DNA of 64,000 nucleotides from Thiomonas sp. (GTDB lineage: Bacteria > Pseudomonadota > Gammaproteobacteria > Burkholderiales > Burkholderiaceae_C), in assembly GCF_034007205.1 (NCBI RefSeq), contig NZ_JAVERI010000003.1, forward strand, positions 179,374 through 243,373. The letters run 5' to 3'. A model generated the notes under the pieces. It was not told where the DNA came from. It made no database searches and saw nothing but the letters and a program-made list of their open reading frames with translations. Of the stretch, positions 55,969-57,297 are shown one piece after another (within the stretch, counting starts at the first letter, position 1; every line of letters begins with the position of its first letter). The position numbers and the translations under genes are program-made.

Positions 55969-56040
55969 GTTTAACAAGTCATTCCAGCAGACCATCAAAA
56001 AGCTGCGCTTTTTGCCATCCGCTGAATTCCAACTTTAGGC
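55969..56040 (+). other. attC site 2 (degenerate R')
   Basis: GTTTAAC-5nt-attccagc ... gctgaatt-5nt-tTTAGGC with symmetric spacing. The first base of R' is T instead of G. Confidence 0.5.
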
Positions 56041-56056
56041 ACCACGGGAGAAGCAA

Positions 56057-56272
56057 ATGCCATCACTAACTCAAGCAGAAATCGAAGGAGTATTCTCGGC
56101 CCTAGGGCTTGCCAATGACGCTTCTCGCGAAAAGTTCCGTCGCCTCGCGGCTACGGCGGAACAACAAGAGACGCCATTGTGCTTCATTCGCGTAGACGAC
56201 TCATCGTCGTGGTCGGACCAAGGAGAGAAATATGCCCAGCTGGCACCAGCTACTCGAAGAGATCAAGACTAA
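56057..56272 (+). CDS. Cassette 3 first ORF: 71-aa hypothetical protein
   Basis: Its ATG is 17 nt after the core, like the other cassette ORFs. GGGAG lies upstream. It overlaps the next gene by 41 nt. Confidence 0.45.
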   Translation: MPSLTQAEIEGVFSALGLANDASREKFRRLAATAEQQETPLCFIRVDDSSSWSDQGEKYAQLAPATRRDQD

Positions 56273-57221
56273 GGGCAGCACGTTCGATGTCATTCGGCGG
56301 AAGTATCTCCAACGTCTCGAACGAGTTACTGGCCGCAATGTCATCCTGTACTACTCCGGCTGGCTGCAGAAGCCAGGAATGGTAGGTGTACAGGTTAATG
56401 ACGCTGACAAGAATGGCTTCATGACTGTAATTCATGGCCTAGACCGCAAACGAGGCCTCGATCTACTTCTTCATACACCAGGGGGAGAAACCGCGGCTAC
56501 AGAGTCGCTCGTGGACTATTTGTACTCGATGTTTGGCACGAACATTCGCGCCATAGTCCCCCAGTTGGCGATGTCGGCCGGCACGATGATCGCGTGTTCG
56601 GCGCGCGAGATCATCATGGGTAAGCAATCTAGCCTTGGGCCAATCGATCCGCAGTTCAGCAACCTCCCTGCGCACGGCGTTGTGGAGGAGTTCAAGCGGG
56701 CCGCCCAGGAGATTTCGGAAGACCCATCGAGGGTCGCGCTTTGGCAGCCTATCATCGCCCGCTATCATCCCACACTCATTGGTGAGTGTGAGAAAGCCAT
56801 TCAATGGTCAGCGGACATGGTCCGTGAATGGCTTGTGCGAGGCATGCTCAAGGATCACGTCGATCCAGTGGCAAAGGCATCAGAGATAGTGACTGAACTC
56901 TCTGATCACGCGCTAACCAAGTCGCACGCGAGACATCTTTCCGCGGACAAGTGTAAGGCGATCGGTCTGAACATTTCAATGCTCGAAGACAACCCTCGCC
57001 TTCAGGACGCCGTGCTCACAGTGCATCATGCCTGCATCCACACACTAGGCTCCACCCAAGCCTTCAAGTTGATTGAAAACCACAAGGGAGTCGCGTTCAT
57101 TCAGATAGCCCAGCAAATGATTGTCCAAGGCCCAGCGAATATTGAGCTCGTTCCTCGCTTGGAGCCACCGCCGCTCGCTGCCCCCCAAGAGGTGCCGCAG
57201 CCGGGCGAGAATGGCGCCTAA
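56232..57221 (+). CDS. Cassette 3 second ORF: SDH-family (S49/ClpP-fold) serine proteinase
   Basis: [56 protein letters not shown]. AGGAG lies 8 nt upstream of the ATG. Confidence 0.75.
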   Translation: [329 protein letters not shown]

Positions 57222-57297
57222 CCACAACTTCGAGCGGACCGTTCACAAGCGGCGCTGCGCGCCCCTTGTGCCCGGCCCCTCAAGTTGATCGTTATAC
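57216..57297 (+). other. attC site 3
   Basis: R'' GCCTAAC (containing the stop TAA) ... cccctcaagttgatc R' GTTATAC. The arms are similar to those of attC1. Confidence 0.65.

Follow-up and report, generated by a model that had tools for sequence, protein, structure and literature searches.

We analysed a 64,000-nt stretch of contig NZ_JAVERI010000003.1 of Thiomonas sp. (hereafter the window) and found an integron gene cassette that carries two overlapping genes, the first encoding a small acidic protein of 71 aa and the second a 329-aa serine protease with a predicted ClpP fold. The same arrangement recurs at loci in many bacterial phyla, and we conclude with high confidence that the pair is a real, conserved, and mobile two-gene unit. 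As for function, a tentative reading, to which we give a probability of about 0.45, is that the pair is a toxin-antitoxin (TA), abortive-infection, or prophage-exclusion kind of module, in which the small protein restrains a ClpP-fold protease effector.

Databases list the protease family under no more than the labels 'SDH family Clp fold serine proteinase' or 'S49 peptidase', and it is uncharacterised. What is new here is the small partner family and its pairing with the protease: Pfam, NCBIfam, PHROGs, PADLOC, and the searchable literature yielded no account of either the family or the pair, in agreement with the initial annotation of this DNA, which knew of no described pairing of this kind. 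The results turn an anonymous protease family into a defined two-component system, of which the pair alone moves between genomes and the partner is mostly missed by annotation.

Structure of the cassette

The cassette, its genes, and the recombination sites that bound it are located as follows.

56035..57291, forward strand: integron gene cassette of 1257 bp, beginning with TT at the crossover point upstream and ending with G of the R' core downstream.
56046..56053, forward strand: Shine-Dalgarno-like sequence GGGAGAAG of the small open reading frame (ORF), read from the sequence.
56057..56272, forward strand: small acidic partner ORF of 71 aa with an ATG start, from the ORF list.
56221..56225, forward strand: ribosome-binding site AGGAG of the protease, within the small ORF and seven bases before the protease ATG, read from the sequence.
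56232..56272, forward strand: 41-nt dual-coding overlap in different frames, with the small-protein C terminus AQLAPATRRDQD over the protease N terminus.
56232..57221, forward strand: protease gene of 329 aa, from the ORF list.
57216..57297, forward strand: the cassette's own attC site, with R'' GCCTAAC overlapping the stop codon and R' GTTATAC.
55951..56040, forward strand: degenerate attC of the preceding DJ-1/PfpI cassette, with R''-like GCTCAAC and an R' remnant TTTAGGC (56034-56040); its 5' limit is uncertain.

The initial annotation had placed a two-gene integron cassette at 56035-57297, and this is borne out by the attC at 57216-57297 and by a second copy of the cassette elsewhere. Sites were judged as attC by an R'' of RYYYAAC and an R' of GTTRRRY, with a bottom strand folding as an imperfect hairpin. 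The downstream site was found by a heuristic attC search, and its bottom strand forms an attC-type hairpin with bulges (-29.6 kcal/mol, z = -6.5, with 0 of 200 shuffles equally good); its R' has one mismatch relative to GTTRRRY. The boundaries at 56035 and 57297 agree with the crossover logic of cleavage between G and TT.

An independent copy of the cassette was found in metagenome contig L092, 96.7% identical over window positions 56018-57293, and the homology between the two stops at the GTT of R', which is the attC crossover point. The L092 copy has the same attC downstream, and the flanking genes on both sides differ from those of the window; upstream of it lie a canonical attC (GGCTAAC...GTTAGGC) and other genes (ParE-like, DUF6544). 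Therefore, the two genes travel together as a single cassette, because a nearly identical copy is found between different neighbours with its homology ending at R'.

In the window, the attC on the upstream side reads T/TTAGGC at the crossover point instead of G/TTAGGC and folds weakly (z about -2). Its final 17 nt are similar to the 3' end of the canonical attC that occupies this place in L092. This suggests, as judged from the sequence, a deletion or rearrangement within the attC of the DJ-1/PfpI cassette. Excision of a cassette needs a functional upstream attC, and because this site is degenerate the window copy is probably no longer excisable and fixed in place.

The gene layout was also as had been claimed, with the 71-aa ORF just after the core (its start is 16 nt past the TTTAGGC remnant), a 41-nt overlap with the protease gene, and the AGGAG all present in the sequence. 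The Shine-Dalgarno-like sequence of the small ORF has a nearly identical counterpart in L092, AGGAGAAG. In homologues, the overlap is mostly 8 or 17 nt, with some cases of 26 nt or near-abutment, and the protease is probably translationally coupled to the small ORF. The small proteins with an 8- or 17-nt overlap end in ...A-K/E-L-A/E at the stop codon, which is not independent evidence of relatedness because the protease's MPNWH codons in the overlap impose it. The idea that the small ORF is a frameshifted protease N terminus was rejected, as alignment to the NCBIfam and PHROG profiles begins at the N terminus of the protease itself and the homologues start at the same MPxW.

Pairing of the two genes across genomes

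Genomic loci with protease relatives were fetched (70 loci), and a hidden Markov model (HMM) of the small family, built from 31 upstream ORFs of protease loci, was used in a scan that covered 71 loci. By tblastn, one locus after another showed similarity to the 71-aa ORF immediately before the protease gene and running over its start, and an ORF of 55-80 aa is present at that position in nearly all loci, typically ending 8 or 17 nt inside the protease gene. The HMM scan found a member of the small family directly upstream of the protease in 44 of the 71 loci (E < 1e-3), from many bacterial phyla and one archaeon, so that conservation of the small ORF beside homologous proteases, which the initial annotation had named as a check, holds across phyla. 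Thirteen of these 44 loci were outside the set used for building the model, with E-values from 2e-5 to 3e-13.

Where the protease identity was about 58% or greater, a small-family member was found in nearly every locus. The exceptions were L011, where the sequence available upstream is too short, and three loci (L030, L041, and L068) that gave no significant HMM match. Conversely, two independently chosen members of the small family (2 of 2) were each followed by a protease N terminus (MPTWHSLL... or MPNWHEIL...) with a 17-nt overlap. An all-against-all BLAST comparison of 588 neighbour ORFs yielded no conserved third gene, and the pair is therefore the functional unit, because no other neighbour is conserved.

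More distant proteases (37-55% identity) were found in Bacteroidales, Alphaproteobacteria, Enterobacteria, a P. aeruginosa phage-plasmid, and Gordonia phage BeeGee, and in these clades mostly unannotated ORFs of 55-70 aa end at the protease start; in E. coli prophages, the P. aeruginosa phage-plasmid, and BeeGee, where the protease identity is 37-52%, these ORFs are 58-66 aa. Homology between the main small family and these ORFs was sought with hmmsearch, and the result was unconvincing, the best E-values among 19 sequences being 3.5e-4 (L044) and 9e-4 (L041). The relationship claimed for the distant small ORFs is therefore one of positional and compositional analogy to the main family only. 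They share a hydrophobic stretch followed by S/T/N residues, analogous to the F-I-R...T/S motif of the main family, as in VIYSTGS, VIVTSYPACNS, ITIILSHNS, and HVRYSTSAT.

Annotation of the partner has a systematic gap: the ORF is unannotated at 6797-6997 of L094 (an E. coli RefSeq prophage), at 3325-3501 of L098 (Gordonia phage BeeGee), and at 4808-5008 of L097 (the P. aeruginosa phage-plasmid). In each case its end coincides with the protease start or lies no more than 8 nt from it.

The small partner protein

The features of the small protein that were predicted or found to be conserved are the following.

56072..56164, forward strand: two-helix hairpin, residues 6-36, predicted by AlphaFold2, with conserved I9, F13, G17, L18, R24, and F27.
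56183..56206, forward strand: F-I-R-x-x-x-x-T/S motif, residues 43-50 (FIRVDDSS), in the predicted disordered tail, from family conservation.

The small protein has an isoelectric point (pI) of 4.6, and the family median is 4.8. AlphaFold2 predicts helices at residues 6-15 and 21-36 with a predicted local distance difference test (pLDDT) score of 89-95, followed by a disordered tail with a pLDDT of 45-66. Within the tail, the motif residues are conserved at 84% for F, 81% for I, 71% for R, and 93% for T/S (149 sequences: 148 family members and the window protein), and we infer that the F-I-R...T/S segment is a candidate protease-binding or cleavage segment. The 37 family members compared with Pfam, NCBIfam, PHROGs, and PADLOC matched no family.

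In a full HMMER search of 1.84 billion representative proteins, a profile of the window protein and its database relatives recovered 196 clusters at E <= 1e-3, nearly all of 55-75 aa. Four matches to large proteins (P0144, P0177, P0251, and P0266) were rejected as false positives; three are RCC1-repeat proteins that match through GQLGLGD...R..F repeats, and P0177 has unrelated domains and matches solely through many short stretches.

The small protein evolves about three times faster than the protease, with a median pairwise identity over 595 locus pairs of 22% as compared to 66% for the protease.

It could be asked whether the 71-aa ORF is a gene at all, rather than a chance ORF or a leader that merely tunes expression of the protease. 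Most annotations omit the ORF, the codons of the protease gene in the overlap dictate its last residues, and a word-indexed search of 5.8 billion called proteins returned a single homologue, the L092 copy. This last result is attributable to the under-calling of small ORFs. The conserved residues (I9, F13, G17, L18, R24, F27, and F43-I44-R45...T50) are all upstream of the gene overlap, the profile reaches E-values of 1e-24 in the search of 1.84 billion proteins and values of 1e-9 to 1e-13 occur at loci left out of model building, the frame stays open from AT-rich to GC-rich genomes, and the helical hairpin is predicted with confidence. These points of protein-level conservation make a chance ORF or simple leader scarcely credible.

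The protease

The residue predicted to act as the nucleophile is encoded at the following position.

56574..56576, forward strand: codon of Ser115 (in AMSAGT), the predicted nucleophile, invariant in alignments.

The initial annotation described the second protein as an SDH/ClpP-fold protease without a signal peptide, next to a small acidic partner, and both descriptions stand. The motifs that it quoted are present, and the protease belongs to the Pfam family PF01972 (SDH_protease, MEROPS S49 clan), with 77.8 bits over residues 53-249 relative to a gathering cut-off of 31.3. The NCBIfam equivalog NF047768 (Clp_like_SDH) matched with 87.8 bits, which is below its cut-off of 250, and the window protease is, by these profile scores, a subfamily related to but distinct from NF047768. 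No signal peptide, membrane segment, or hydrophobic segment is visible in the protease sequence.

Residues S115, D139, H81, H232, H235, H265, and H266 were invariant in two alignments (63 locus-derived and 42 database sequences). With the Ser-Asp-His set intact, the protease looks active and strongly constrained. The AlphaFold2 model (pLDDT 85.9) has a ClpP-like core and a helical C-terminal half; its best structural matches in the PDB are ClpP structures, with a target-normalised TM-score (TMt) of 0.6-0.68 and E about 1e-3, and sequence matches to solved structures were weak ones to ClpP alone (E about 0.01). The best viral structural matches were giant-virus proteins annotated 'serine dehydrogenase proteinase', which are SDH proteinases (E = 4e-10). 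The structurally closest of these viral proteins come from Klosneuvirus relatives, Hyperionvirus (with many paralogues), and Marseillevirus and Mimivirus bins.

The family comprises more than 8000 database clusters at 90% identity. The protease is 60-80% identical across Proteobacteria, Acidobacteriota, Chloroflexota, Actinomycetota, Planctomycetota, Saccharibacteria, Thermoplasmatales bins, and others, and because this level of identity spans phyla and archaeal bins, frequent horizontal transfer is indicated, with the reservation that metagenome bins make up most of the records.

Genomic contexts of the pair

No housekeeping context was found for the protease, in line with the initial proposal: it occurs in an integron, in accessory slots of prophages, and sometimes beside defence genes. 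The possibility that the homologues are mostly integron cassettes was considered and rejected. Candidate attC sites, located by heuristic search, adjoin only about 7 of 70 loci, and integrons are therefore one vehicle among several.

The closest non-identical relative (81% protease identity, P0002, in contigs L078-L083) is directly upstream of a CBASS pair (SMODS cyclase and S_4TM effector); this locus also has a 1432-aa helicase-like gene and a Bro-N gene, and the arrangement recurs in at least six metagenome assemblies. Other copies lie beside type I restriction-modification, Schlafen/AlbA, and DUF1016 genes, within a flagellar operon as part of a small island that also has hicB, where a Mu-like prophage ends, and in a circular P. 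aeruginosa phage adjoining the integrase. In lambdoid E. coli prophages, the pair was found between antiterminator Q and the lysis genes and, in another arrangement, with the lysis genes on one side and terminase on the other. Of 5426 complete E. coli genomes, 86 contain DNA resembling the pair in its enterobacterial version.

The presence of the pair in phages raises the explanation that it is a remnant of phage morphogenesis, that is, a prohead (capsid maturation) protease accompanied by a small acidic protein resembling a scaffold. Phage scaffolds are themselves small, acidic, helical proteins, and the protease has weak profile matches to ClpP-related head maturation proteases (phrog_53, E = 2.6e-10, and NCBIfam NF045542). 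In P. gingivalis phages, moreover, the gene lies beside hicAB, between the portal/adaptor and neck genes. On the other side, the cassette of the window is free-standing and without capsid genes, the copy in a Shewanella Mu-like phage lies between the late regulator and the lysis genes and thus outside the head module, and E. coli prophage L094 also contains a separate ClpP-like prohead protease/capsid fusion. The protease gene was found in only 7 of 50,697 phage records, and its best phage family, phrog_11747 (323.7 bits), has no assigned function. A role in morphogenesis is therefore very improbable.

Proposed function of the pair

The reading that we put forward, of a TA, abortive-infection, or prophage-exclusion kind of module, follows from the partner being first in the operon, small, acidic, half-disordered, and fast-evolving, from the protease being nearly frozen, and from the accessory-gene contexts. 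The strict pairing of the genes, their movement as a unit, and the copies beside defence genes also count in its favour. In the mechanism proposed, the small protein would bind the protease, and its tail would occupy the substrate groove of the latter. The tail would act as a pseudo-substrate or slowly cleaved inhibitor, and the protease would thereby be kept silent. Loss or displacement of the fast-evolving partner, for which phage infection, host expression shut-off, or loss of the element are possible triggers, would free the protease, which could then cut a conserved cellular or viral target. The invariant residues of the protease and its identity across phyla would fit a target that is independent of the variable partner.

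The conserved tail motif also bears on the main alternative explanation, in which the small protein is the substrate, cut by the protease at or near F-I-R...S-T-T with release of a toxic, signalling, or regulatory peptide. Such a precursor would parallel, by analogy, the NfeD-type ClpP-fold proteases that cut a stomatin encoded alongside. A short conserved motif in a disordered tail is typical of a cleavage site, strict pairing and gene overlap suit an enzyme with a dedicated substrate, and the missing promoter would be no obstacle. The protease also matches the NfeD1b_N family weakly, although its 26.5 bits are under the family cut-off of 40. An enzyme and its substrate would be expected to co-evolve at similar rates, whereas the protease is about three times more conserved than the small protein, and the latter has no signal peptide, hydrophobic helix, or cysteine pattern that hints at an exported or membrane-active product. 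On balance, we regard the precursor explanation as unlikely.

A further explanation is that the small protein serves as assembly factor, gate, or substrate adaptor in accessory proteolysis that benefits the host or prophage and is neither toxic nor immune in its role. That a small adaptor can be encoded upstream of a Clp component is established, as for ClpS-ClpA. A role of this kind would suit the many copies located among housekeeping genes, the few distant proteases that seem to be partnerless, and a promoterless cassette, which is the condition of ordinary adaptive cassettes. The patchy and strongly horizontal distribution in prophage accessory slots, integrons, and the vicinity of defence genes is unlike that of a proteostasis factor, however, and fast divergence of a partner relative to a nearly frozen protease is more typical of conflict systems. 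We therefore consider the adaptor explanation rather improbable.

Several observations weigh against the TA-like module that we prefer. Neither protein matches a known TA or defence family in Pfam, NCBIfam, or PADLOC-DB 2.0 (none of the latter at E <= 0.1), and no DNA-binding domain was detected in the small protein (37 members compared with Pfam and NCBIfam, a weak test). The cassette is without a promoter of its own, whereas classical TA cassettes usually have one: no promoter-like site was found upstream of the small ORF (also a weak test), and only 22 nt separate the cassette start from the ATG. Four distant loci (L040, L052, L061, and L064) have no overlapping small ORF, such that the protease may be able to exist alone. 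The association with defence genes, although in favour of the module, is modest and suggestive only: by raw count, roughly a tenth of the 150 nearest neighbour ORFs give strong PADLOC matches, among them MADS, PARIS AriA, Tiamat, BrxL, and CBASS, and many neighbours are housekeeping genes (MreB, tRNA synthetases, DNA ligase). Lastly, many of the loci are metagenome bins, the taxonomic labels of which may be partly wrong.

A broader and more doubtful proposition is that the pair represents a very widespread and previously unrecognised class of two-gene conflict module, in which a ClpP-fold Ser-Asp-His protease is checked by a dedicated, rapidly evolving partner of 55-75 aa. If true, this class would extend from E. 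coli prophages to archaea and would be spread by integrons and phages, with a partner that is largely absent from annotation, and the cleavage target would, to judge from how extremely the protease is conserved, be a universal one. If the pair is a defence or addiction system, it would bring a new effector fold and would add to the evidence that integron cassettes store such systems. The native versions in E. coli prophages make toxicity, phage resistance, and cleavage directly testable.

The cassette array and surrounding region

The window has about 65% G+C, with an island of 52-55% at 55-58 kb that corresponds to the cassette array. The array consists of four co-oriented cassettes over 54894-57831, with attC-like sites between the ORF units, and begins with the following features.

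54682..54759, reverse strand: candidate remnant of an integron integrase N terminus (…LRSVRLLDQLRERIACVHY), from tblastn.
54894..54900, forward strand: attI-like core GTTAGGC at the array start, read from the sequence; the first cassette ORF begins at 54920.

The candidate intI remnant has 15 of 22 identical residues (E = 6e-5) with no match beyond, in a tblastn search with an IntI1 sequence as the probe, and is a lead only. The integron is decayed, with about 22 recognisable intI codons and the attI-like GTTAGGC left, and is effectively an attC cluster without a working integrase. About 1 kb past the integrase remnant there is an insertion sequence (IS) transposase gene (DDE_Tnp_1/DUF772) at 52355-53728 on the forward strand.

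The first cassette encodes a 109-aa protein (54920-55249, forward strand) that has no match in Pfam, NCBIfam, PADLOC, or PHROGs, and is followed by a canonical attC at 55244-55315 (GCCTAAC...GTTAAGC). The second encodes the DJ-1/PfpI-family protein (55331-55939, forward strand). Downstream of the two-gene cassette, the fourth encodes a 150-aa protein (57307-57759, forward strand) with several hydrophobic segments and no family match. The attC of this last cassette, at 57754-57831, has a degenerate R' (GCTAGGG), and an apparent IS fragment at 57971-58288 on the reverse strand marks the array end.

Beyond the array, a gene for an ImmA/IrrE-type M78 peptidase overlaps an Xre-type helix-turn-helix (HTH) gene at 58395-59758 on the reverse strand, and two function-unknown genes (412 and 317 aa in related contigs) occupy about 59860-62173 on the forward strand, divergent from the M78/HTH pair. 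Together, these four genes could be another mobile or defence-type module beside the array.

Comparison with known systems

The pair resembles type II TA modules, including those of integron cassettes, in having co-directional overlapping genes of which the first encodes a small, acidic, partly disordered, and fast-evolving protein and the second a larger conserved one, and in being self-contained, mobile, and often located in prophages and gene arrays. It differs from them in that no TA-family homology, DNA-binding domain, or own promoter was seen, and we know of no TA toxin with a ClpP fold.

Proteases that act as anti-phage effectors, such as Lit and the subtilase IetS of Gao IetAS, are similar in that a small mobile module, present in prophages and near defence genes, probably has a protease as its effector. 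Lit and IetS have other folds and partners, and neither protein of the pair was matched by a PADLOC model.

The ClpP/S49-type prohead proteases and their scaffolds share with the pair the fold class, a small acidic helical protein beside the protease, and an occasional presence in phages. The pair is mostly without linkage to capsid or portal genes, however, exists as a lone integron cassette, and can co-exist with a separate prohead protease.

A parallel in gene arrangement is provided by NfeD/STOPP and stomatin (archaeal PH1510/PH1511-type operons), in which a ClpP-fold protease of the S49 clan is encoded beside the gene of its target in bacteria and archaea. In contrast to these operons, the partner described here is a soluble acidic protein of 55-75 aa with no SPFH match, the protease has no membrane segments, and the conserved residues are Ser-Asp-His rather than Ser-Lys.

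The protease itself is aligned with the SDH family (PF01972, MEROPS S49, NF047768) by its PF01972 score, its ClpP fold, and the presence of Ser, Asp, and His in that order, and it is set apart from that family by an extra helical C-terminal half and by a dedicated small partner gene.

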